Shown here: in pieces, positions 4,421 to 40,734 of the stretch
Numbering within the stretch: the stretch's first letter is position 1
Layout of the letters: each line of letters starts with the position of its first letter
Source of the DNA: Escherichia coli
GTDB lineage: Bacteria; Pseudomonadota; Gammaproteobacteria; Enterobacterales; Enterobacteriaceae
DNA: 64,000 nucleotides
Reading direction: 5' to 3' (one strand)
Assembly (NCBI RefSeq): GCF_003018235.1
Contig: NZ_CP027437.1
Notes under the pieces: generated by a model
Databases searched by the model: none
What the model was told of the DNA's origin: nothing
Seen by the model: only the letters and a program-made list of their open reading frames with translations
Made by a program: the position numbers and the translations under genes

Positions 4421-5593
4421 TTATGCGATTTTTTGCATCCTTTCTAATGCTTGTTCAAGCCAGTATCTTTGGGTGCCGAAGTTTAAACGTAAGTAGTTTT
4501 CACCGTTTTGCACATAATGGCTGCCATCTTCAATAATGACTCCAGCGTTGCGGGCAAAATGATTGACCCATTCGGTCGCGGAGCGTCCACTTTCACTGAC
4601 ATCAATCCATGCCAGATATGACGATTCTGGTGTCATCATTTTCCATTCAGGAAAATGCGTCTTGAGGGCATCATTAAGCCAGTGGGAGTTATTGCGTAAA
4701 TAGATATTTAATGCATCCAGCCACGGTCTTGCATGCTGATAAGCCAGTGTAATTCCCCAAACGCCAAAAATATTCGGCGAAGTGATTGAGTTCATTTCCA
4801 GTCTCTGGCGAAAACGCTGCCTCAATCCTTTATTCGGAATGACTGAGTAAGATGTTTTCAGTCCCCCTAGGTTAAAGGCTTTATTTGGTGATGTTAGCAG
4901 GACCAGATTATCGTGATCGGCACATCCGGTAGCCAGGCAACTGACAAACTCGCCTTCCAGCAGGTGCTCGGCATGGACTTCATCCACGACCAGAATGACG
5001 CCGTAACGTTTACATAAGTCCGAAACCTGGCGAATCTCATCTGCCGTCCAGATTCGCCCGGAAGGGTTATGTGGAGAGCAGAAAAACCATAGTTTAGGTT
5101 TATGAAGTTTAAGCTGATCTTCAACCAGCGAAAAATCCAGTTGATAACGGTTATCCGCAATGCTTAACGGATTTGCCAGCACTTTAACCCCCTGGCGCTC
5201 TGTTGCCATGGCAAAAGGGTCATAGACTGGCGTATTCATCATGACGCTATCGCCCGGCTGGCAGAACGCCTGAACCATATAGTGCAGCGTTGAGACAGTA
5301 CCATAGGTTAGGGTGATCCAATTCTGCTCGATACTTACGTGGTGACGATCGCGCTGGAAGCCTATCACGGCCTCATAAAACTCATTAAAGGCGTATGTGT
5401 AGCCGAAAGTTCCGTGCTCAACAATCCGTTGAAAACCGTCAATTACCGCTGGTGGCGAAGTAAAATCCATATCAGCGATCCAAAGAGGGATAAAATCTTC
5501 TGCAACCGCACCGAAGCGTGAGCAGACAAACTGATGATCCCATTTGCGGCACTTGTCGCTTTTACGCTCGATAATTCTATCGAAATCGAACAT
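4421..5593 (-). CDS. PLP-dependent aminotransferase class I/II, MalY/PatB-type C-S lyase (cystathionine beta-lyase-like)
   Basis: 390-aa ORF, AGGAG RBS; N-terminus MFDFDRIIERKSDKCRKWD and overall pattern resemble E. coli MalY; 12 nt downstream of the PTS gene (operon). Confidence 0.85.
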   Translation of the reverse strand: MFDFDRIIERKSDKCRKWDHQFVCSRFGAVAEDFIPLWIADMDFTSPPAVIDGFQRIVEHGTFGYTYAFNEFYEAVIGFQRDRHHVSIEQNWITLTYGTVSTLHYMVQAFCQPGDSVMMNTPVYDPFAMATERQGVKVLANPLSIADNRYQLDFSLVEDQLKLHKPKLWFFCSPHNPSGRIWTADEIRQVSDLCKRYGVILVVDEVHAEHLLEGEFVSCLATGCADHDNLVLLTSPNKAFNLGGLKTSYSVIPNKGLRQRFRQRLEMNSITSPNIFGVWGITLAYQHARPWLDALNIYLRNNSHWLNDALKTHFPEWKMMTPESSYLAWIDVSESGRSATEWVNHFARNAGVIIEDGSHYVQNGENYLRLNFGTQRYWLEQALERMQKIA

Positions 5594-5605
5594 TTTTAAC
5601 TCCTG

Positions 5606-7177
5606 TTAAATTAAAGCTTCAAGGCCCGTTTTCACACTTTGAACTTGCGGGCCAATAATTACCTGCACACTGTGAGCATCCAGTACAACCACCGACAGGG
5701 CACCTGCATTCTTTAACGTGGCTTGATCCACTTTCGACATATCTTTCACCACCAAACGTAAACGAGTAATACAGTTATCCAGTGAATCAATATTTTCTTT
5801 TCCGCCAAGCGCACTCAAAATCACAGCATGATCATATTTAGATTTGCCTCGTGCTTTTGAATTTGCTGCAACAGCCTGTGCTGCATCCTCAGATGAGTCT
5901 TCACGGCCTGGGGTTTTAATATCATGCTTAAGGATGTACCAACGGAAAACAAAGAAATAAATAGCAAACCAAACAATACCCACCGGAAGTATTAAATACC
6001 ATTTAGTAGAAGTACCCTGCATGATACCAAATATTAATAAATCCAAAATCCCGCCATCAGTATTACCGATAGTCACGCCCAGGATTGCCATAACCATTAA
6101 GGCCAGACCGGACATGATAATATGGAATATATACAACGCAGGAGCAATAAAGAGGAATAAAAACTCAATTGGTTCAGAAATGCCAGTAACAACAGATACT
6201 AATACGCCTGAAAGCAGTAAGCCTTTAATTACAGGACGATTTTCTGGTTTGGCTGTACGATAAATTGCGTAAGCCACAGCAGGCAAACCAAACATAAAGG
6301 TTGGCATAAAGCCTTGGGATAAAAACGCAGTAACATGTGGGCTAAAGGGAAGACCGGCTTTTAATTCTGCATAGAAAATATTGAGTGCTCCGGCAACTTC
6401 ATGACCGTCGACAATTTCTGTACCGCCCGCAGGTGTGAAGCGAACCATTGCAAGCAAGATATGATGTAGCCCGAAAGGCTTAAGCAAAAGCACACCAACG
6501 CCATAAAGGAACGGGCCGAATACGCTGGTACTTTGAATAATGTGGCCAATACCAGCAATACCCATTGCAACATAGGTCCAGAGCAAAGGAATGGCCTGGC
6601 CTACTAATGATAATGTTAGCGAAGTGATGATGGGTACGAAGCGGATACCGCTAAAGAAGGCAAAGGCATCATGTAATACAGTATCCTGAAAACGTTCGTG
6701 GAGAAAATAAGTTATTACCCCGGCGATGATGCCACCTAAAACGCCCATCTCTAAGGTTTGAATACCTAATACTACAGATTGACCAACCTGCTTCATCGTG
6801 GCAGCATCGGCAAGTTGATGGGTAACAGTGAGATAATAATTAATACTCATGTTCATTAGCATATAGCCAACAAAACCTGAATATGCGCCTACTGCTTTAT
6901 TTCTCTTTGCCATTCCTAATGGAATTGCAATAGCAAACATAACAGGTAGATAAGTAAATGCAAAGCCACCTACCATTGCAATAAAGCCAAATGTAAGTTG
7001 GGTAAGCTCACCACCTAAAAAGGGGAAGTTATTAATTGTTGAGGGGCTGGTTACTGAACTACCTATACCTAACAGAAGTCCCATAAAAGCGAGTAATGAT
7101 ACTGGGAACATAAATGTTTTCCCTAAACTTTGGAAAAACTCCCAGACCCGTGACTTTATAGACTTTTCCTGTGTCAT
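5606..7177 (-). CDS. PTS glucose/maltose-family EIICB component (MalX-like)
   Basis: 523-aa ORF; membrane EIIC domain followed by EIIB domain with the conserved phospho-cysteine motif NCITRLR; AAGGAG RBS; resembles MalX/PtsG. Confidence 0.85.
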   Translation of the reverse strand: MTQEKSIKSRVWEFFQSLGKTFMFPVSLLAFMGLLLGIGSSVTSPSTINNFPFLGGELTQLTFGFIAMVGGFAFTYLPVMFAIAIPLGMAKRNKAVGAYSGFVGYMLMNMSINYYLTVTHQLADAATMKQVGQSVVLGIQTLEMGVLGGIIAGVITYFLHERFQDTVLHDAFAFFSGIRFVPIITSLTLSLVGQAIPLLWTYVAMGIAGIGHIIQSTSVFGPFLYGVGVLLLKPFGLHHILLAMVRFTPAGGTEIVDGHEVAGALNIFYAELKAGLPFSPHVTAFLSQGFMPTFMFGLPAVAYAIYRTAKPENRPVIKGLLLSGVLVSVVTGISEPIEFLFLFIAPALYIFHIIMSGLALMVMAILGVTIGNTDGGILDLLIFGIMQGTSTKWYLILPVGIVWFAIYFFVFRWYILKHDIKTPGREDSSEDAAQAVAANSKARGKSKYDHAVILSALGGKENIDSLDNCITRLRLVVKDMSKVDQATLKNAGALSVVVLDAHSVQVIIGPQVQSVKTGLEALI

Positions 7178-16765: not shown

Positions 16766-18337
16766 TCAGGTCACCGGTGCCGGGTTAAACACCGCCAGCT
16801 GGTTATGCAGTCCCCATTGATCTGAGAAGGTTTTCTTCTTCCCGCTGGCGACGTCGAGAATAAAGTGGAACAACTTCCAGCCCACCTCTTCAATAGTTTC
16901 TTCGCCAGTAGCGATGGTGCCCGCATTAATATCCATTAAATCAAACCAGCGGTTCGCCAGCTCGGTGCGGGTCGCCATTTTAATGACGGGTACCGCCATC
17001 AGGCCGTACGGCGTACCGCGACCGGTCGTAAACACTTGCACGGTAATCCCTGAAGCCACCTGTTGTGTGCCACAGACAAAATCGCTGGCTGGCGTCGCGG
17101 CGTAAATTAATCCGCGTTTAGTCGGGCGTTGACCGGGCGACAGCACTTCAACAATTGCACTTTTACCCGATTTAGCAATGGAGCCGAGCGCTTTCTCCAC
17201 CACGTTTGCCAGACCGCCTTTCTTGTTGCCCGGCGAAGGGTTGGCGCTGCGGTCGGTTTTTCCCATATTGAGATAGTTATCGTACCACTCCATCTCCTCC
17301 AGCAGCCGTTTGCCGACCTCTTTGTTCACTGCGCGTGGTGTCAGCAGATGGATCGCGTCACGCACTTCCGTGACTTCTGAAAACATCACCGTTGCGCCGC
17401 AGCGCACCAGTAGATCAGACGCATACCCAACCGCCGGGTTTGCCGTTACGCCAGAAAACGCATCGCTGCCGCCGCACTGCATGCCGACAACCAGTTCTGA
17501 AGCCGGACAGGTTTCTCGCTGCCGTTGATTCAGTTTGTGCAAATGGCGTTCGGCGACCTGCAAAATATCCTCGACCATGGACTGAAAGCCGACATGCTTT
17601 TCATCCTGCAAACTGACAATGCTGGCGCTTTCTACTGGAATAGCTTGCACATCATCTGTTCCAGTCAGCAGGCGCTCAGGCTGCAACTTTTCACAACCCA
17701 GACCAATCACCATTACTTCGCCGCCAAAGTTAGGGTTCAGCGAAATATTGTGGATGGTACGAATAGGCACAACTGCCGCCGGTGCGTTAATCGCCACGCC
17801 ACAGCCGTACAAATGATTCAGCCCCACCACGCCATCGACGTTCGGGTATTTCGGTAGCAGATCGCGTTCAATGATTTTTACTACATAGTCCACCACGCCT
17901 GCCACACAGTGGACGCTGGTGGTGATGCCGAGCAGGTTTTTGGTGCCCACGCTGCCATCGGCATTGCGATAGCCCTCAAAGGTGTATCCTTCCAGTGGCG
18001 GTAAGGGTTCCGGGACTTTGGTTGCCAGTGGCAGCGTGTGTAACGGTGGCGCTTCCGGTAGCACAACCATTGATTCGTCGATCCAGCTTCCGCGTGGGAT
18101 TGCGCGCACGGCGTAACCAATCACTTCGCCATAACGAATAATTTCACCATTAGCCGGAATGTCCAGCAATGCGACTTTATGCCCCTGGGGAATATGTTCA
18201 ATTAATTCCAGCCCATCCGGAAAACGCGTTCCTGCTTTCAGGCCATTATCATTAACAATAATTGCCACATTATCTGTGTCGTGAACTTTTATATAAAACG
18301 CAGTTGGCGTTTCTTGTCTGATTTCGATGTTGGCCAT
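16766..18337 (-). CDS. garD: Galactarate dehydratase GarD
   Basis: 523-aa [29 protein letters not shown]...; altronate/galactarate dehydratase (SAF + UxaA) family. Confidence 0.9.
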
Positions 18338-18711
18338 TGTGCAATATTCTCCAGCCAGGGGTTATTAAAATGAGGACCTGGTCTCATTTAAAAATAAATG
18401 ACTTCATTGGGTGAAATAAGAATGTCAGGAGTTTAAAGGCAGAAATGTGATCAATGTCAATCATTTCAGGGATTGCAGTGCCGCGCGGTAAGGTAAAGCG
18501 CAAATCTGTGCTTTAGCGCGCAACCTTATGTGCATATGCTCAAAATAATATTTAAATAGTATTAATTAAATTAGCATTTGCACAATGATTATTATTCTCG
18601 CGCTGCTTATACTAATTCCCGAGTTCATTGCCGTAACGGCATAAATAAAACTCATAAATAACACCTTCCCCATAATAATAAAAATCAGCATAAGTACCCG
18701 AGGTAAATAAA

Positions 18712-20046
18712 ATGATTCTGGACACCGTTGACGTAAAAAAGAAAGGCGTGCATACCCGCTATTTAATATTACTGATTATTTTTATTGTTACCGCCGTTAA
18801 CTACGCCGATCGTGCAACGCTGTCTATTGCTGGTACCGAAGTGGCAAAAGAGTTGCAGTTAAGTGCGGTTTCGATGGGTTACATCTTCTCTGCTTTTGGC
18901 TGGGCCTACTTGCTGATGCAAATCCCCGGCGGCTGGCTGCTTGATAAGTTTGGTTCGAAAAAAGTTTACACCTACAGCCTCTTTTTCTGGTCGCTATTCA
19001 CCTTCCTGCAAGGCTTTGTTGATATGTTCCCGCTGGCCTGGGCAGGGATCTCCATGTTCTTTATGCGCTTTATGCTGGGGTTCTCGGAAGCGCCATCATT
19101 CCCGGCGAACGCCCGTATTGTCGCCGCCTGGTTCCCAACGAAAGAACGTGGTACTGCCTCCGCCATCTTTAACTCGGCGCAATATTTCTCGCTGGCGCTC
19201 TTTTCGCCGCTGCTTGGCTGGCTGACTTTCGCCTGGGGCTGGGAGCACGTCTTTACCGTTATGGGGGTAATTGGTTTTGTGCTGACGGCGCTGTGGATCA
19301 AGTTGATTCATAACCCGACAGATCACCCACGTATGTCTGCGGAAGAGCTGAAGTTTATCTCAGAAAATGGCGCGGTGGTCGATATGGACCACAAAAAGCC
19401 GGGCAGTGTGGCAGCAAGCGGTCCCAAACTGCATTACATCAAGCAATTGCTCTCTAACCGCATGATGCTGGGCGTATTTTTCGGACAATATTTTATCAAC
19501 ACCATCACCTGGTTCTTCCTCACCTGGTTCCCAATTTATCTGGTGCAGGAAAAAGGCATGTCGATTCTGAAAGTGGGTCTGGTCGCCTCGATTCCGGCAC
19601 TGTGTGGCTTTGCGGGCGGCGTGCTGGGAGGTGTCTTCTCGGATTATCTGATCAAACGCGGTTTGTCCCTGACCCTGGCACGTAAGCTACCGATTGTGCT
19701 GGGAATGTTGCTGGCTTCCACCATCATCTTATGTAACTACACCAACAACACCACGCTGGTGGTCATGCTGATGGCGCTGGCTTTCTTTGGCAAAGGATTT
19801 GGTGCGCTGGGCTGGCCGGTAATTTCTGACACCGCGCCGAAAGAGATTGTTGGCCTCTGCGGCGGCGTCTTTAACGTCTTTGGCAATGTTGCCTCCATTG
19901 TCACTCCACTGGTGATTGGCTATCTGGTAAGTGAACTGCACTCCTTCAATGCAGCACTGGTTTTCGTGGGATGTTCAGCGCTGATGGCGATGGTCTGCTA
20001 CCTCTTTGTAGTTGGCGACATTAAACGTATGGAATTGCAGAAATAA
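18712..20046 (+). CDS. garP: Galactarate/glucarate/glycerate MFS transporter GarP
   Basis: 444-aa MFS ORF; first gene of garPLRK, divergent from garD. Confidence 0.9.
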   Translation: MILDTVDVKKKGVHTRYLILLIIFIVTAVNYADRATLSIAGTEVAKELQLSAVSMGYIFSAFGWAYLLMQIPGGWLLDKFGSKKVYTYSLFFWSLFTFLQGFVDMFPLAWAGISMFFMRFMLGFSEAPSFPANARIVAAWFPTKERGTASAIFNSAQYFSLALFSPLLGWLTFAWGWEHVFTVMGVIGFVLTALWIKLIHNPTDHPRMSAEELKFISENGAVVDMDHKKPGSVAASGPKLHYIKQLLSNRMMLGVFFGQYFINTITWFFLTWFPIYLVQEKGMSILKVGLVASIPALCGFAGGVLGGVFSDYLIKRGLSLTLARKLPIVLGMLLASTIILCNYTNNTTLVVMLMALAFFGKGFGALGWPVISDTAPKEIVGLCGGVFNVFGNVASIVTPLVIGYLVSELHSFNAALVFVGCSALMAMVCYLFVVGDIKRMELQK

Positions 20047-23025: not shown

Positions 23026-23402
<377 letters not shown>

Positions 23403-23412
23403 TGTTTTACGT

Positions 23413-23440
23413 AAAAACCCGCTTCGGCGGGTTTTTGCTT
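23413..23440 (+). terminator. Rho-independent terminator of rnpB
   Basis: AAAAACCCGC-ttcg-GCGGGTTTTT hairpin followed by T-rich tract. Confidence 0.6.
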
Positions 23441-23509
23441 TTGGTGCACAGGGTAAGATGAATAAATATCTACGGTATTAATAATAGACTTTGTAAGAAG
23501 TTATTAAGT

Positions 23510-24697
23510 CTATATTGCATTTAAAAGGTCGTAATTATACGTATAGTCCTCTCTGGTAAAATATTGATTCTCTGAGTTATAAGCTTCATATGTATTATAT
23601 TTTACGACTTCAAAGCAATTGTCTGAAGAATTTTCGTCTTTCTCGAGTGTATTATCTGGAAGGAATTCCTCTGAGCTAGAGTCCTCTATGTTTAAATCTG
23701 TATTGTAATTAATTTTTGGATCGATTAGATAAGCATTTCCTTTGACGCTTTCATAATCTTTAATGATTATATCGATGTAATAATCTATTTTTTCTGATGA
23801 GAATGCTTTCATCTCTGGTAATCTAATTCTGTTCAAGTAATTGTTAATTTTCGATGAGCTTTTATATATTTCTTTTGTTAATTCATTTTCTAATTCATCT
23901 GTTAGAGTTGCTCTTGGTATAGATTCTATAATTGCAAGTCTCATAATTTTTAATTGTTCTTCGGTAATATCCCCAAGCGCATTTAAACAACTTTCGACAA
24001 GCTTAATTTTTTCTTCAGAATACATATCGCTAATGCTTGTTATAACAGGCGTTATTTTTAGTAAATAATCCCAGGAGATTGTGGCGTTTTGTGTTGAACT
24101 AACGAAATTTACCTGAAACATGTTGGCATTAGTAAAATCTGTGTCATCCAATTTAAAAGGATTTAAAATTGTATTGGCCATATGTTTATCTGTAAAATCA
24201 TAAAGTTCTAAATCGACATTCCGTAAGTCCAGAGAGGATAGATCAACTATACCTCCAGTCCCACAACTAAAGATTACGTTCAACCTCCTGATTTCATTGT
24301 AAATGTCTTTCAATGGGCAATTAACATTGATATTGCCTGTGGATATTTCCTGGTTTTTTAACGGTTCATTAATGGTAAGTTCACAGGTATTGTCTGATCG
24401 TTGAATAATTCGGGCGTTATAACCTAAAAAATCCAGACGAAGAGACGAGTCATTATAAAGAATTACATTTTGTAAGTACGCTAATTCTTTTTGAAAATCA
24501 CCAGTGATAATGCATTTCCCACCTGGTTGTAACGCGTTAAGTAAAGTGACCATTTGAACAGAGGTCTGTTTTAGTTTTTCTATGCCTGGTGCTAGTGCTT
24601 CGAGGTTATTTCCTATGGGGCTTTCAGGAAGATCATTCATTTTTCGACGGGCTAAATCACAACTAATATCATTACCAATTGATGAAACAGGGGACAT
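23510..24697 (-). CDS. yhaC: Pentapeptide-repeat-like protein YhaC
   Basis: 395-aa ORF in strongly AT-rich DNA; matches recalled YhaC position and length. Confidence 0.8.
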   Translation of the reverse strand: MSPVSSIGNDISCDLARRKMNDLPESPIGNNLEALAPGIEKLKQTSVQMVTLLNALQPGGKCIITGDFQKELAYLQNVILYNDSSLRLDFLGYNARIIQRSDNTCELTINEPLKNQEISTGNINVNCPLKDIYNEIRRLNVIFSCGTGGIVDLSSLDLRNVDLELYDFTDKHMANTILNPFKLDDTDFTNANMFQVNFVSSTQNATISWDYLLKITPVITSISDMYSEEKIKLVESCLNALGDITEEQLKIMRLAIIESIPRATLTDELENELTKEIYKSSSKINNYLNRIRLPEMKAFSSEKIDYYIDIIIKDYESVKGNAYLIDPKINYNTDLNIEDSSSEEFLPDNTLEKDENSSDNCFEVVKYNTYEAYNSENQYFTREDYTYNYDLLNAI

Positions 24698-24718
24698 TAT
24701 TTTATCCTTTATAAATAA

Positions 24719-25288
24719 TCAATAAAAATCATTATTAAAATGATCGGGTGAAAAAAAGAGAATTTGCCAACAATCTGAAGGAATGGCTGTTTTATTAAAG
24801 TACGTAGGGGGGGTTAAGATGGCTTCTTTTCGGGTGAATTTTGCACAATACTTAGAAATCGTCTCCTTAATATATTCCAGCTCTTTTTTATTGACGACTG
24901 AGCAAGTACATTGTTCACCAAAAGGTGCAAAAGTGCCTACATCTAATGTTTGTATGATGTAATCGTCATGTTCTCCTGTAGAAATATCTATGATGAATGG
25001 ACTCATATTTTCCGGTTGGATTCGGATCATGACAGAAGGAATATCGCCTTGATAGAAATTCAATGCAGTAATTGCAGATAATACTCTCCGCAGTTCATTA
25101 CTTATACTGTAAATTTTATTAACGTCATTGGTGGAGACAATTTCTGCAAACTTTCTTTTTACCGTCCAATAATCAATATTTCTATTGTGATTGTTAACCA
25201 CTGCGTGCATTGGCGGGATTGAAGGGTGAAAAATATGTGCAATTGGGAAGCCTTTCATTGATGCCTGCCTTGTCATCATGACAAACAA
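24719..25288 (-). CDS. yhaB: Uncharacterized protein YhaB
   Basis: 189-aa ORF (possible start a few codons downstream), 21 nt upstream of yhaC, AT-rich. Confidence 0.7.
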   Translation of the reverse strand: MFVMMTRQASMKGFPIAHIFHPSIPPMHAVVNNHNRNIDYWTVKRKFAEIVSTNDVNKIYSISNELRRVLSAITALNFYQGDIPSVMIRIQPENMSPFIIDISTGEHDDYIIQTLDVGTFAPFGEQCTCSVVNKKELEYIKETISKYCAKFTRKEAILTPPTYFNKTAIPSDCWQILFFSPDHFNNDFY

Positions 25289-25513
25289 TAATAGATGCTT
25301 ATTTTCCTCGCAGGGTTCTTTCGCACTATCAAAAAACGCTCATTTACCCGGCGTTACAGTAAACGAAGCAACATTCTGTGGCCTACGCCGATCAAAAGCT
25401 CTGTGAAAATTTCCCTTGTTGTCTTTGTCTGACCTTATCGCGGCGACCAGCAATTATTCGTTTTGTGATCCTCAACACAAAATGCTATTCGTCACCTATG
25501 AGGGGAGAAGAAT

Positions 25514-25858
25514 TTATGGAAAACGATTGCATTCACAAAATGACGTCCTGTCAGAAGAGAAAAAGTTGACGTTAATCAATTGTTCGAGATGATCAATATT
25601 TGTATTCGAAATTTTAAAATATTGATAAAATAAATGTTTGTTCTCCAACAAATAGCGTGAAAAAATGTGACGTGCCGCATTATTTATCGCTGAAAATGAT
25701 TTATTTATAATAAAATTTGAGAACTTGCTCATTAAATTTAACTCAAAATTTGCCTGGTAATTATCCGGTAATTGCTTGAAATATGGTCTCAGCCCCTTTT
25801 TTGTATTAACCACATAACGAATGATGTTATCGCCATAAAATATGGTTATCCCCGTCAT
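25514..25858 (-). CDS. tdcR: Putative tdc operon activator TdcR
   Basis: Small ORF divergent from tdcA at the position of tdcR; start placed at MTGITIFYG; AT-rich; true length uncertain. Confidence 0.5.
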   Translation of the reverse strand: MTGITIFYGDNIIRYVVNTKKGLRPYFKQLPDNYQANFELNLMSKFSNFIINKSFSAINNAARHIFSRYLLENKHLFYQYFKISNTNIDHLEQLINVNFFSSDRTSFCECNRFP

Positions 25859-25967
25859 TTTTTTTGACAAAAATCAGGGTTTATGCTGATTTTTATACTT
25901 TAACTTATTGATATATAAAGATATTTAATTGGAATAACGATACCATGGAAAGTATTGAAAGTTAATT

Positions 25968-25983
25968 TGTGAGTGGTCGCACA
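25968..25983. promoter_or_regulatory. CRP binding site in tdc promoter
   Basis: TGTGAgtggtcGCACA (TGTGA-N6-TCACA-like), about 65 nt upstream of tdcA. Confidence 0.55.
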
Positions 25984-26046
25984 TATCCTGTTCATTTCAT
26001 TTTGATACACTTCATGCCGTCAATGAGGTAATTAACGTAGGTCGTT

Positions 26047-26985
26047 ATGAGCACTATTCTTCTTCCGAAAACGCAGCACCTGGTAGTCTTTCAGGAAGTC
26101 ATTAGAAGTGGCTCTATCGGCTCGGCTGCAAAAGAATTAGGGTTAACTCAACCGGCCGTCAGTAAAATCATTAACGATATTGAAGATTATTTTGGCGTGG
26201 AATTAGTGGTGCGGAAAAATACCGGTGTAACATTAACACCTGCCGGTCAATTGTTACTCTCCCGTTCCGAATCCATTACCCGTGAAATGAAAAATATGGT
26301 TAATGAGATAAGCGGTATGTCTTCTGAGGCGGTGGTGGAAGTCTCATTTGGTTTTCCTTCATTGATTGGTTTTACTTTTATGTCCGGGATGATCAACAAG
26401 TTCAAAGAGGTGTTCCCGAAAGCGCAGGTTTCTATGTATGAAGCGCAACTGTCTTCGTTCTTACCGGCAATCCGCGACGGTCGACTGGATTTTGCGATTG
26501 GTACGTTAAGCGCAGAAATGAAGCTTCAGGATTTACATGTTGAGCCGCTGTTCGAGTCCGAGTTTGTGCTGGTAGCCAGTAAGTCCCGAACATGCACCGG
26601 CACCACCACGCTGGAGTCGTTGAAGAACGAACAGTGGGTGTTGCCACAAACCAATATGGGGTACTACAGCGAGCTGCTCACCACGTTACAAAGAAATGGC
26701 ATCAGTATTGAAAACATCGTTAAAACCGACTCAGTCGTGACAATTTATAATCTTGTTCTCAATGCTGATTTCTTAACTGTAATTCCTTGTGATATGACAT
26801 CACCTTTTGGTTCTAATCAATTTATTACTATTCCGGTTGAAGAAACATTACCTGTGGCACAATATGCCGCGGTATGGTCGAAAAATTATCGTATTAAAAA
26901 AGCAGCATCGGTTTTGGTGGAATTAGCCAAAGAGTATTCATCTTATAATGGGTGTAGACGAAGGCAATTAATTGAAGTTGGTTAG
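26047..26985 (+). CDS. tdcA: LysR-family activator of the tdc operon TdcA
   Basis: 312-aa ORF with LysR HTH (AAKELGLTQPAVSKIINDIE). Confidence 0.9.
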   Translation: MSTILLPKTQHLVVFQEVIRSGSIGSAAKELGLTQPAVSKIINDIEDYFGVELVVRKNTGVTLTPAGQLLLSRSESITREMKNMVNEISGMSSEAVVEVSFGFPSLIGFTFMSGMINKFKEVFPKAQVSMYEAQLSSFLPAIRDGRLDFAIGTLSAEMKLQDLHVEPLFESEFVLVASKSRTCTGTTTLESLKNEQWVLPQTNMGYYSELLTTLQRNGISIENIVKTDSVVTIYNLVLNADFLTVIPCDMTSPFGSNQFITIPVEETLPVAQYAAVWSKNYRIKKAASVLVELAKEYSSYNGCRRRQLIEVG

Positions 26986-27083
26986 TTATTTGTTTTTATT
27001 TAAACATAAATAATCCACCTGTCTGTTTTGCAGGTGTCGGTTACGGTTACCTACATATTTAATTCAGGCTAAGAGGTTTTATA

Positions 27084-38823: not shown

Positions 38824-39720
38824 ATGGCCAAAGAAAGGGCATTAACGCTGGAAGCACTACGGGTTATGGACGCGATCGATCGCCGGGGCAGTTTTGCGGC
38901 GGCGGCGGATGAGCTGGGACGCGTGCCTTCCGCACTTAGCTACACCATGCAAAAACTGGAAGAAGAGCTGGATGTGGTGCTGTTTGACCGCTCGGGCCAT
39001 CGCACCAAATTCACCAATGTCGGGAGGATGTTGCTGGAGCGAGGGCGCGTTTTGCTGGAAGCCGCAGATAAACTGACTACCGATGCGGAAGCCCTCGCGC
39101 GCGGTTGGGAAACGCATCTCACCATTGTGACCGAGGCGTTGGTACCGACACCTGCCTTTTTCCCGTTAATCGACAAACTGGCGGCAAAAGCCAATACCCA
39201 ACTGGCAATTATCACCGAAGTGCTGGCGGGGGCGTGGGAACGGCTGGAGCAGGGGCGGGCGGATATCGTTATCGCGCCGGATATGCATTTTCGTTCCTCG
39301 TCGGAGATCAACTCGCGCAAACTCTATACCTTAATGAACGTCTATGTTGCCGCGCCTGATCACCCGATTCATCAGGAGCCGGAACCGTTATCTGAAGTGA
39401 CGCGCGTGAAATATCGTGGAATTGCGGTGGCGGATACCGCTCGTGAGCGCCCGGTATTGACCGTACAGCTGCTGGACAAACAGCCGCGCTTAACGGTGAG
39501 CACGATTGAAGATAAACGTCAGGCATTACTGGCGGGGCTTGGCGTGGCGACGATGCCGTATCCGATGGTCGAAAAAGATATCGCGGAAGGGCGGTTGCGT
39601 GTCGTCAGCCCGGAATCGACCAGCGAGATCGATATTATTATGGCCTGGCGTCGTGACAGTATGGGGGAAGCGAAATCCTGGTGTCTGCGGGAAATTCCCA
39701 AACTTTTTAGCGGAAAATAA
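38824..39720 (+). CDS. yhaJ: LysR-family transcriptional regulator YhaJ
   Basis: 298-aa ORF with LysR HTH. Confidence 0.85.
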   Translation: MAKERALTLEALRVMDAIDRRGSFAAAADELGRVPSALSYTMQKLEEELDVVLFDRSGHRTKFTNVGRMLLERGRVLLEAADKLTTDAEALARGWETHLTIVTEALVPTPAFFPLIDKLAAKANTQLAIITEVLAGAWERLEQGRADIVIAPDMHFRSSSEINSRKLYTLMNVYVAAPDHPIHQEPEPLSEVTRVKYRGIAVADTARERPVLTVQLLDKQPRLTVSTIEDKRQALLAGLGVATMPYPMVEKDIAEGRLRVVSPESTSEIDIIMAWRRDSMGEAKSWCLREIPKLFSGK

Positions 39721-39742
39721 TATTTATTATTGTTAATAAAAA

Positions 39743-39760
39743 GGGGCGAAATATCGCCCC
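39743..39760. terminator. Bidirectional rho-independent terminator between convergent yhaJ and yhaI
   Basis: GGGGCGAAATATCGCCCC hairpin flanked by A-run and T-rich tract. Confidence 0.6.
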
Positions 39761-39770
39761 AATTTAAATA

Positions 39771-40127
39771 TTAATTTGAACCAAATTTCGGATCGTTTCC
39801 GTAACGATTGCTGCCAGAATTGCCCTCTAAACAGGCAAATACAAACAGAACTAACCAGCCAATGATCGGTACCAGATAGAGAAGCGCCCACGCACCTGAA
39901 CGGTCAGTATCATGCAGACGACGAACGCACAGAGCAATGACCGGAATGATTGTTGCTGCCAGGTAAATGAGAGAAAGGAACGGAAACTCTAAACCTAAAA
40001 TCAATTGAATGACATTGATAATAGCGCCGACGATGGCGTTAATCAGAGTAAACATCCAGTACTCTTTACGACGTGCGCGACCAGAGAAACCAACATAATT
40101 TTTTAATACGGATAAATACCACTGCAT
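39771..40127 (-). CDS. yhaI: DUF805 inner-membrane protein YhaI
   Basis: 118-aa ORF MQWYLSVLKNYVGFSGRARRKEYWMF... Confidence 0.8.
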   Translation of the reverse strand: MQWYLSVLKNYVGFSGRARRKEYWMFTLINAIVGAIINVIQLILGLEFPFLSLIYLAATIIPVIALCVRRLHDTDRSGAWALLYLVPIIGWLVLFVFACLEGNSGSNRYGNDPKFGSN

Positions 40128-40368
40128 AAAAACATCCCTTTAATTAAAAGTGACGAAAGTTTATTCCGGGTATTGTGTAAATGCTATTCGTATCTTTCTT
40201 TTTCGGATGTTATAAAGGTTTTGATATTTAAGATAAATACATGATTATTTTTTATAGGTAATTTATATAACGACATTGAAATATTTTAAATAAACATTAG
40301 TAAATTATTCATTCATCAACATAATGATAAAAGCCGGATGAGTCAGACATCCGGCGAGCAGATTTGTT

Positions 40369-40734
40369 TTAAGGTTCCAGTTTTGGATCAGGTCCAAAGC
40401 GGTTTTCGCCTGGCGTACCCGCCTGGCAGTTAAAGACGATGATAATAAGCCAGCCGATAAACGGGATTAAGAACAGCAGTGCCCACCACGCCGAGCGGTC
40501 GGTGTCGTGCAGGCGGCGGAACTGAACCGCCCACCACGGTAAAAACACCAGAATACCGTAGATTGTTGTCAGGATGCCTTCGCCACCAGCGCGTTGCCAG
40601 CCTAACATTTTATCCAGCAGCCCCAGCACGAACGTAAAGATGATGTTGACCAGAATAAACATCCAGTACTCTTTGCGCCGCGCACGACCCCGGAAACCGA
40701 CATAATTTTTTAGTACTTTCAGATACCAGTCCAT
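40369..40734 (-). CDS. yhaH: DUF805 inner-membrane protein YhaH
   Basis: Start at MDWYLKVLKNYVGFRGRARRKEYWMF (121 aa); paralog of yhaI. Confidence 0.8.
   Translation of the reverse strand: MDWYLKVLKNYVGFRGRARRKEYWMFILVNIIFTFVLGLLDKMLGWQRAGGEGILTTIYGILVFLPWWAVQFRRLHDTDRSAWWALLFLIPFIGWLIIIVFNCQAGTPGENRFGPDPKLEP

Follow-up and report, generated by a model that had tools for sequence, protein, structure and literature searches.

Is the strongly AT-rich stretch that separates the RNase P RNA gene rnpB from the tdc operon of Escherichia coli a single piece of foreign DNA and, if it is not, which part of it came from elsewhere? We examined this question in a 64,000-nucleotide window (the whole stretch of DNA analyzed, from contig NZ_CP027437.1 of RefSeq assembly GCF_003018235.1), in which the gene order garR-garK-rnpB-yhaC-yhaB-tdcR-tdcA-tdcB is the E. 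coli arrangement. An earlier note, made from the sequence alone, had described yhaC, yhaB and tdcR together as an old, horizontally acquired and H-NS-silenced islet next to a stable RNA gene. Our comparisons indicate, with a probability that we put at roughly three in four, that the stretch is instead a composite of a yhaBC insert and an ancestral tdc control region with separate histories, and that yhaBC entered an early ancestor of Escherichia.

The AT-rich stretch probably combines an insert with ancestral control DNA

The locus was compared across species by scanning one genome per GTDB species for GarK and keeping 10 kb on each side; rnpB, TdcA, TdcB, TdcR, YhaB and YhaC were then located in the best 80 of the 258 GarK loci. 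The order garK-rnpB-spacer-tdcA is kept in ~35 loci from >15 genera (Escherichia, Pseudocitrobacter, Citrobacter, Enterobacter, Lelliottia, Salmonella, Silvania, Trabulsiella, Superficieibacter, Huaxiibacter and others), and the spacer between rnpB and tdcA measures 620–860 bp in most of them, with a G+C content of 0.32–0.39 in all of these. By tblastn in the 80 loci, YhaC has zero matches at garK-rnpB-tdcA loci outside E. coli, and the sole YhaB match outside E. coli is a 39-aa relic in E. albertii. At the nucleotide level, the segment that holds yhaC, yhaB and the spacer upstream of yhaB (Table 1) does not align to the rnpB-tdcA spacers of other genera, its only counterparts being short relics in E. 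albertii and Escherichia sp. MOD1-EC7003. The distribution across the family, which the earlier note had proposed as a check, thus agrees with its expectation: yhaBC is missing from the syntenic locus in every non-coli lineage examined, and related genera did not uniformly carry the genes with ordinary codon usage, as they would if these were ancestral core DNA.

The right-hand part of the stretch, with the tdcR open reading frame (ORF) and the tdc promoter region, is distributed differently. It shares 79–87% nucleotide identity with other Escherichia species and 66–69% with Citrobacter, Salmonella arizonae and Enterobacter sp. ENT03, and the 700 bp upstream of tdcA have a G+C content of 0.32–0.38 in 25 of the 25 other lineages examined. 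Two CRP-like sites, 504 bp apart, hold their positions across genera (same offsets in loci L009–L073): the half-sites of the distal one are kept at −582/−583 in Escherichia, Citrobacter, S. arizonae and Enterobacter ENT03, with a variable 6-nt spacer, and in each of the 26 lineages scanned the proximal one lies between −77 and −82. Since this block is homologous and AT-rich in other genera, with conserved CRP-like sites, we read the right-hand quarter of the islet as ancestral tdc control DNA, whose AT-richness says nothing about gene transfer. The proposal of a horizontally acquired islet therefore stands for yhaBC, which is atypical in composition and codons, missing from syntenic loci and without homologues elsewhere, and falls for the ~600 bp of the tdcR/tdc-promoter part.

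Composition, homologues and the search for a vehicle

G+C content is 33.7% in positions 23404–26046 and 50.7% in the 64-kb window, and the interval singled out earlier (23460–25900) has a value of 0.336. The lowest value among all 2441-bp segments of the window is 0.335, starting at 23491, ~4 standard deviations (SD) under the mean (mean 0.506, SD 0.042), so that a strongly AT-rich islet between rnpB and tdc is confirmed as the lowest of its size in the 64 kb. Its left border is as sharp as had been described, with G+C falling from 0.63 to 0.29 in ~300 bp past rnpB. Recovery at tdcA, claimed in the same place, is partial only: garK has 0.535, tdcA 0.429 and tdcB 0.462, and the tdcA-tdcB spacer forms another dip, to 0.34. 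Within the islet, G+C is 0.327 in yhaC, 0.360 in yhaB, 0.288 in tdcR and 0.315 in the tdcR-tdcA spacer. Codon usage gives the same picture as the sliding-window minimum inside the islet, G+C at third codon positions (GC3) being 0.28 in yhaC and 0.32 in yhaB (0.58 ± 0.07 in the 41 other long ORFs of the window) and codon-bias distance 0.60 and 0.58 (0.28 ± 0.07 in the same 41), which places yhaBC 4–5 SD from the neighbouring genes. The proteins encoded in the islet flanks are 99–100% identical to their counterparts in complete E. coli genomes.

In a word-indexed search of 5.8e9 clusters, all YhaC homologues with a named source come from E. coli or Shigella, and YhaB homologues, sought by this search alone, are likewise limited to E. 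coli/Shigella. Full HMMER searching of 1.84e9 representatives with YhaC yielded nothing but full-length or fragmentary matches of ≥54% identity and two marginal ones, of which one is a pentapeptide-repeat protein. No phage homologues of yhaBC were found, and the four matches labelled as plasmids (three records of 4.8–4.9 Mb and one of 354 kb, all E. coli and non-mobilizable) are probably mislabelled chromosomal DNA; a phage or plasmid origin was rejected on the zero phage matches and the lack of a genuine plasmid match. A published phylostratigraphic analysis also assigns the yhaB-yhaC operon to a young stratum (PMC12218254).

The search for a vehicle was equally negative. The ORF list of the window contains no integrase, recombinase or other mobility gene at the islet, no tRNA was found there, the insert has no direct or inverted terminal repeats above chance, and 23481–27000 holds no further copy of the rnpB 3′ end. 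As to RNA genes hidden in the islet, Rfam (E ≤ 1) returned only terminator-hairpin look-alikes and a chance OmrA-B match (E = 0.65), and Tandem Repeats Finder (TRF) reported no tandem repeats of note in the islet of the window. With neither an integrase nor a duplicated rnpB 3′ end, insertion probably proceeded by illegitimate or homologous recombination. Overall, we regard the yhaBC insert as probably foreign in origin.

Table 1 Features of the rnpB-tdcA region and of a second atypical gene pair in the window
Feature	Position	Strand	Evidence and remarks
rnpB (RNase P RNA)	23027–23403	+	Rfam RF00010, 318.6 bits, E = 1.7e-103; G+C 0.618; G+C-rich left border
Last 23 nt of rnpB and terminator hairpin	23381–23444	+	Single copy of the unit repeated in K-12-like strains
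rnpB terminator hairpin, strong	23411–23438		Terminator scan
Escherichia-restricted insert (yhaC, yhaB, yhaB upstream spacer)	~23475–25449		Borders good to tens of bases
yhaC, 395 aa	23510–24697	−	ORF list and RefSeq annotation
Degenerate pentapeptide-repeat segment, YhaC residues 152–201	24095–24244	−	Ten consecutive pentads
yhaB, 179 aa in RefSeq	24719–25258	−	RefSeq annotation of near-identical strains
Ancestral AT-rich tdc regulatory block (tdcR ORF and tdc promoter region)	25450–26046		Placed between rnpB and tdcA across Enterobacteriaceae
Distal CRP-like site, TGTGATCCTCAACACA	25464–25479		583 bp upstream of tdcA ATG, ~205 bp upstream of yhaB ATG
tdcR, 72 aa, annotated transcriptional activator	25514–25732	−	NCBIfam NF008507
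FNR-like palindrome, near-perfect, TTGACGTTAATCAA	25566–25579		Pattern scan; inside 3′ part of tdcR
Proximal CRP-like site, TGTGAGTGGTCGCACA	25968–25983		79 bp upstream of tdcA ATG
tdcA	26047–26985	+	ORF list, RefSeq annotation, G+C; right border, G+C back only to 0.43
MalX-like phosphotransferase system (PTS) IIBC transporter, 523 aa	within 4421–7177	−	GC3 0.35, codon-bias distance 0.52
PatB/MalY-like C-S lyase, 390 aa	within 4421–7177	−	

Deep alleles and loss of yhaBC

YhaC occurs in E. coli as several allele classes, all at the same position: relative to the window, window-like alleles are 95–98% identical, K-12-like alleles ~88% and a further class (class C) 64%. YhaB of the class C haplotype is 76% identical to that of the window, and mosaic yhaBC alleles, such as P0029, also exist. 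The haplotypes differ by 13–33% at the nucleotide level in a block at ~23418–25600, with flanks that are 95–100% identical. Synonymous divergence (dS), which Nei–Gojobori counts on such short, compositionally extreme genes measure only roughly, amounts to 0.51–0.58 in yhaBC between the window and class C, compared with 0.04–0.12 in garK, tdcA and tdcB of the same two strains. For flanking genes, dS is 0.42–0.77 between E. coli and E. albertii and 0.31–0.65 between E. coli and E. whittamii; judged from these sequence comparisons, the divergence of yhaBC alleles is genus-level, matching that of flanking genes between Escherichia species.

In E. albertii, the 5′ part of yhaB has left a colinear relic (123–132 nt, 73–79% identity, E ~1e-15), and a weaker one, of yhaC, is kept by Escherichia sp. 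MOD1-EC7003 (E = 3e-5); yhaBC is therefore older than the separation of these species, which lost it later by deletion. An old acquisition, as the earlier note had it, agrees with both the E. albertii relic and the allelic dS of ~0.55. The flanks of MOD1-EC7003 are themselves mosaic, garK being clade-like (dS 0.63 to the window) and tdcA and tdcB E. coli-like (dS 0.08–0.13), so that a recombination breakpoint lies in or near the spacer.

Within E. coli, the yhaC core is present in 4336 of the 5426 complete genomes, always chromosomal and in single copy, and missing from the other 1090 (~20%). Nearly all of the latter (1062) share an identical double-deletion junction that removes window positions 23554–24365 and 24429–25155, the carriers including the type strain ATCC 11775 and O25b:H4-ST131.

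YhaC and YhaB are real but weakly constrained proteins

At the composition of the islet, stop codons occur at a random frequency of ~0.073, and a 395-codon frame stays open by chance with a probability of ~1e-13 (hand calculation). The ratio of nonsynonymous to synonymous divergence (dN/dS) between haplotypes is 0.29–0.45 for yhaC and 0.13–0.58 for yhaB (overall 0.25–0.45 for yhaBC), compared with 0.00–0.10 for garK, tdcA and tdcB. In comparison with the class C allele, codons 81–160 and 201–240 of YhaC are the most constrained (dN/dS 0.06–0.25), and the pentapeptide-like region and the acidic C-terminal tail evolve fast (0.6–1.0). The yhaB frame stays open beyond its annotated start up to an upstream TTG at 25288, which gives a protein of 189 aa; because yhaB lies only 21 nt upstream of yhaC, the two genes are probably co-transcribed.

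As the earlier note had stated, the proteins have no recognisable function. Scans against Pfam, NCBIfam, PADLOC and PHROGs returned self-named families and chance-level matches only, the self-named ones being NF007262 for YhaC (equivalog, 856.6 bits, cut-off 765, residues 1–395) and NF008507 for TdcR (equivalog, 168.2 bits, cut-off 100, residues 1–72). YhaB homologues at 73–96% identity carry the precomputed Pfam family PF27690 (UCP004546), which did not match the 189-aa ORF in our Pfam scan, the model presumably being newer than the release scanned. Among anti-phage defence families (PADLOC-DB v2), YhaC and YhaB have no match and TdcR has one at chance level (E = 0.022).

YhaC is an acidic (isoelectric point 4.4), soluble orphan with no transmembrane segment. 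Its previous description as pentapeptide-repeat-like finds weak support: ten pentads with L, F or M at position 2 are visible (DLSSL DLRNV DLELY DFTDK HMANT ILNPF KLDDT DFTNA NMFQV NFVSS), but the scores stay below the thresholds of both Pfam pentapeptide families (PF13599, 14.8 bits against a cut-off of 38, E = 0.031; PF00805, 12.4 against 20.2). Profile searching of the PDB yielded weak pentapeptide matches only (2j8k and 4yfo, E = 0.016–0.06), apart from a match to folate dehydrogenase (E = 0.001) that is likely spurious and covers a low-complexity stretch. AlphaFold2 models were unusable for both proteins, with a mean predicted local distance difference test score (pLDDT) of 31.8 and zero residues >50 for YhaC (12-sequence alignment) and a mean of 35.6 for YhaB (6 sequences). 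The idea of an EspX-type type III effector was rejected on a direct BLASTP comparison of YhaC with EspX1 (ECs_0025), in which the best E-value was 3.2.

tdcR and the tdc control region

Only certain Escherichia lineages have an intact tdcR ORF, and other genera lack it, despite the 66–69% conservation of the underlying DNA. Its dN/dS is 0.6–2 within E. coli and 0.54–0.76 between Escherichia species (loci L009–L013), strain SCPM-O-B-8794 has a premature stop, and E. albertii lacks an intact ORF. TdcR, annotated as an activator, may be encoded by an ORF that arose recently within a conserved control region, and its weak constraint makes one ask whether the genetic effect that has been reported comes from the protein or from the DNA or RNA of that region.

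Conservation of the near-perfect FNR-like palindrome inside tdcR is limited to some Escherichia lineages; this sequence is the site predicted beneath a K-12 FNR ChIP-chip (chromatin immunoprecipitation on microarrays) peak labelled yhaB (PMC1802558). A CRP footprint obtained in vitro and attributed to yhaB has the same sequence as the distal CRP-like site (PMC12871828). We observed that this site sits at the border of the ancestral DNA and the yhaBC insert, and that it is also kept in species without yhaBC. During gut evolution of E. coli in old mice, IS5 inserted recurrently at one position of the tdcA/tdcR spacer, reaching up to 65% and exceeding 5% in 4 of 6 mice (PMC7518454), which suggests selection to change expression from the region; the spacer corresponds to window positions ~25733–26046.

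H-NS binding and promoters

The yhaBC islet is largely known already, having been catalogued for K-12. Each of three ChIP data sets shows H-NS on a 706-bp 'promoter island' within yhaC (Table 1 of PMC3661553), the same study reports that yhaC is predicted to be foreign by two methods (Nakamura; Lawrence and Ochman), and a second H-NS-bound promoter island lies in the tdcA/tdcR spacer (PMC3661553). That spacer is marked as H-NS-associated in another study, which also records a yhaBC promoter in the tdcR-yhaB spacer from systematic evolution of ligands by exponential enrichment (SELEX) with RpoD (PMC3946193). In the islet of the window we found 18 promoter-like hexamer pairs, with 11.4 ± 4.0 expected. 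H-NS silencing of the kind proposed earlier is plausible, the binding being documented for K-12 and extrapolated here to the window haplotype.

The rnpB-tdcA spacer is a recurrent insertion point

Elsewhere, the rnpB-tdcA gap is occupied by unrelated cargo of 2–5 kb (loci L025, L032, L035, L037, L040 and L073). Enterobacter soli has a PAAR-domain protein (PAAR toxin) and a small membrane ORF, Citrobacter amalonaticus S646 an orphan colicin/pyocin immunity gene amid unknown ORFs, one Lelliottia species a chemoreceptor (methyl-accepting chemotaxis protein, MCP), Salmonella arizonae an insertion sequence (IS) transposase remnant, Huaxiibacter a DeoR regulator and Citrobacter sp. NCU1 a GntR regulator plus PTS-like ORFs. 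Neither yhaBC nor the gap cargo of other genera shows the combination of recombinase and att sites that marks tRNA-type islands, and the place that varies is more aptly called the intergenic spacer than rnpB.

The suggestion that the insertion was mechanistically linked to the stable RNA gene found no support, since no integrase, tRNA or distal copy of the rnpB 3′ end is present. Sequences related to the rnpB 3′ end do vary in copy number on its own side of the spacer: the repeat unit of K-12-like strains maps onto the end of rnpB and its terminator (98% over 64 nt) and occurs, with a period of 113 bp, in 3.5 tandem copies in K-12-like/KO11 strains (TRF; L003 3752–4144, L004 1976–2368) compared with 1 in the window. 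This variation accounts for the length differences between E. coli matches. Several Escherichia, Citrobacter and Enterobacter loci, including species without yhaBC, have 2–3 copies of the 113-bp unit, so the repeats are not insertion scars of the yhaBC islet.

Weighing alternative origins

Three other accounts of the origin of the stretch were considered. That all 2.6 kb (yhaC, yhaB, tdcR) form a single acquired islet that targeted rnpB, as tRNA-associated islands do, would suit the unbroken low G+C from 23440 to 26046, the want of informative family matches for all three ORFs and the tandem copies of the rnpB 3′ end and terminator in K-12-like strains, which superficially resemble att duplications. 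The tdcR/promoter block is, however, homologous and equally AT-rich in genera without yhaBC; integrase, tRNA and a distal-border duplicate of the rnpB 3′ end were all not found; and the 113-bp repeats are tandem on the rnpB side only and occur in species without yhaBC. The DNA homology of the control block and the positional CRP-like sites in other genera thus largely refute this account, which we hold to be very improbable. A birth of yhaB and yhaC de novo, by expansion of the ancestral AT-rich spacer in Escherichia and without transfer, gains some credit from the absence of homologues among the 1.84e9 representative proteins, from the base composition that the genes share with the host spacer and from the precedent of tdcR, which looks like a young ORF arisen in the same spacer. 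It is nevertheless just as hard to accept, because the 620–860-bp spacer of other genera is fully explained by rnpB terminator repeats and the tdc regulatory block, leaving ~2 kb that need a source; open frames of 395 and 179 codons at 33% G+C are very improbable by chance; the YhaC core is under purifying selection; and the terminal-repeat comparison already suggests an insert without similarity to duplicated spacer sequence. Scarcely credible is the idea that yhaBC is ancestral Enterobacteriaceae core DNA, AT-rich by relaxed selection and lost independently elsewhere: loss does occur, as the relics in E. albertii and MOD1-EC7003 and the E. coli deletion lineage attest, but the lack of any tblastn trace in >20 genera with conserved garK-rnpB-tdcA synteny would demand many independent clean deletions, and codon usage lies 4–5 SD from neighbouring genes.

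A fourth account concerns function: yhaB-yhaC may be a conflict module (an anti-phage or anti-competitor pair, or a secreted effector with its partner), kept polymorphic by diversifying or balancing selection at the insertion-prone spacer, and not a silenced passenger. Genus-deep YhaC classes and mosaics coexisting in one species, presence/absence polymorphism at the locus, the joint divergence of YhaB and YhaC in one haplotype, the fast segments of YhaC, the toxin and immunity genes in the same gap of other genera and the short degenerate pentapeptide segments of the type III effector-like EspX1 all lend it some appeal, as does the placing of yhaC among the 14 strongest positive-selection signals of 92 E. 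coli genomes (PMC9110714). Against it stand the lack of a PADLOC match or a meaningful PHROG match for either protein, of similarity between YhaC and EspX1 and of a detectable enzymatic or toxin domain (with structural models that could not be used), together with an overall dN/dS of <0.5; deep alleles could equally arise if a locus under weak selection received them from other Escherichia lineages by introgression, and that 20% of strains, as well as sister species, have lost the genes cleanly is an argument for dispensability. We therefore judge a conflict module unlikely, although, were it true, H-NS binding at yhaBC would be a regulatory layer and not a sign of junk. An insert of foreign yhaBC beside an ancestral tdc control region remains our preferred interpretation, and several points weigh against it. 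What speaks for transfer is composition and distribution only, with donor, vehicle and insertion scar not found, and composition is weaker evidence than usual in a host spacer that was AT-rich already. Absence outside E. coli is a sampled absence, E. fergusonii and the main E. coli representative not being among the 80 loci; the MOD1-EC7003 relic is weak and the dS values are rough; the evidence for H-NS occupancy and silencing is K-12 literature on a haplotype different from that of the window; and the positive-selection signal ill fits a merely decaying passenger.

Discussion

The following history would accommodate these observations. The tdc control block would have lain upstream of the tdc operon, between rnpB and tdcA, since before the enterobacterial genera split, and in Escherichia it would later have gained the short, poorly constrained ORF tdcR. 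The two-gene orphan operon yhaB-yhaC probably entered the spacer in an early Escherichia ancestor from an unsampled source, by illegitimate or homologous recombination, at a site that appears to take insertions recurrently in other genera. Because of its ~33% G+C, the insert would be coated by H-NS (as ChIP indicates in K-12, and by extension in the window strain), so that yhaBC would be transcribed little; the conserved distal CRP-like site and the promoter in the tdcR-yhaB spacer would probably give conditional expression. The genes are dispensable, having been deleted in E. albertii, in other Escherichia lineages and, by what appears to be one inherited double deletion, in ~20% of E. coli, and the surviving alleles, as diverged as Escherichia species, would have been exchanged by recombination through the conserved flanks.

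The locus is a textbook example of AT-rich, H-NS-bound, lineage-restricted DNA, and little hangs on it in that respect. It does offer a caution for composition-based island calling, one quarter of this 'islet' being ancestral regulatory DNA that is AT-rich for reasons of its own. The rnpB-tdcA spacer emerges as a variable locus with differing cargo across Enterobacteriaceae, and the genus-old allele classes of E. coli make yhaBC a candidate worth a simple phenotype screen.

Elsewhere in the window, coding DNA is next most atypical in another gene pair of odd composition on the minus strand (Table 1), and other short stretches of ~0.40 G+C lie at 18101–19000, coinciding with the spacer that precedes the ORF at 18712–20046, and at 39701–40550.

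Comparison with known systems

At the protein level, YhaC resembles pentapeptide-repeat proteins (PF00805/PF13599) in its ten pentads with a hydrophobic position 2 and in its weak profile matches, and differs from them in scoring far under the family cut-offs, in a repeat that covers ~50 of 395 residues and in a right-handed quadrilateral beta-helix fold left unconfirmed by a model with a pLDDT of 32. EspX1 of E. coli O157 offers a comparable case of short degenerate repeats, with a sub-threshold pentapeptide match of its own (E = 0.0027), but shows no similarity to YhaC outside the repeat.

At the level of the locus, the islet shares with genomic islands at the 3′ ends of tRNA and tmRNA genes its place directly downstream of a stable RNA gene, its restriction to one lineage and the presence of other cargo there in other genera; unlike them, it has no integrase, mobility genes or far-border repeat of the RNA gene 3′ end, and the insert is only ~2 kb. 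Hypervariable E. coli loci with deep allele classes and flank-mediated exchange are matched by the sharp divergent yhaBC block, its mosaics and its presence/absence variants, although no known surface-exposed or restriction function at yhaBC explains diversifying selection. The closest parallel is found in the H-NS-bound, AT-rich xenogeneic islets and promoter islands of K-12 (Panyukov/Ozoline; Lawrence–Ochman and Nakamura lists), which do not separate the ancestral tdc-proximal quarter from the foreign part. The window differs in carrying a rarer haplotype, with ~88% YhaC identity to the K-12-like allele and 1 terminator repeat in place of 3.5, and agrees with these islets in locus, in its 33% G+C and in its excess of promoter-like hexamers.

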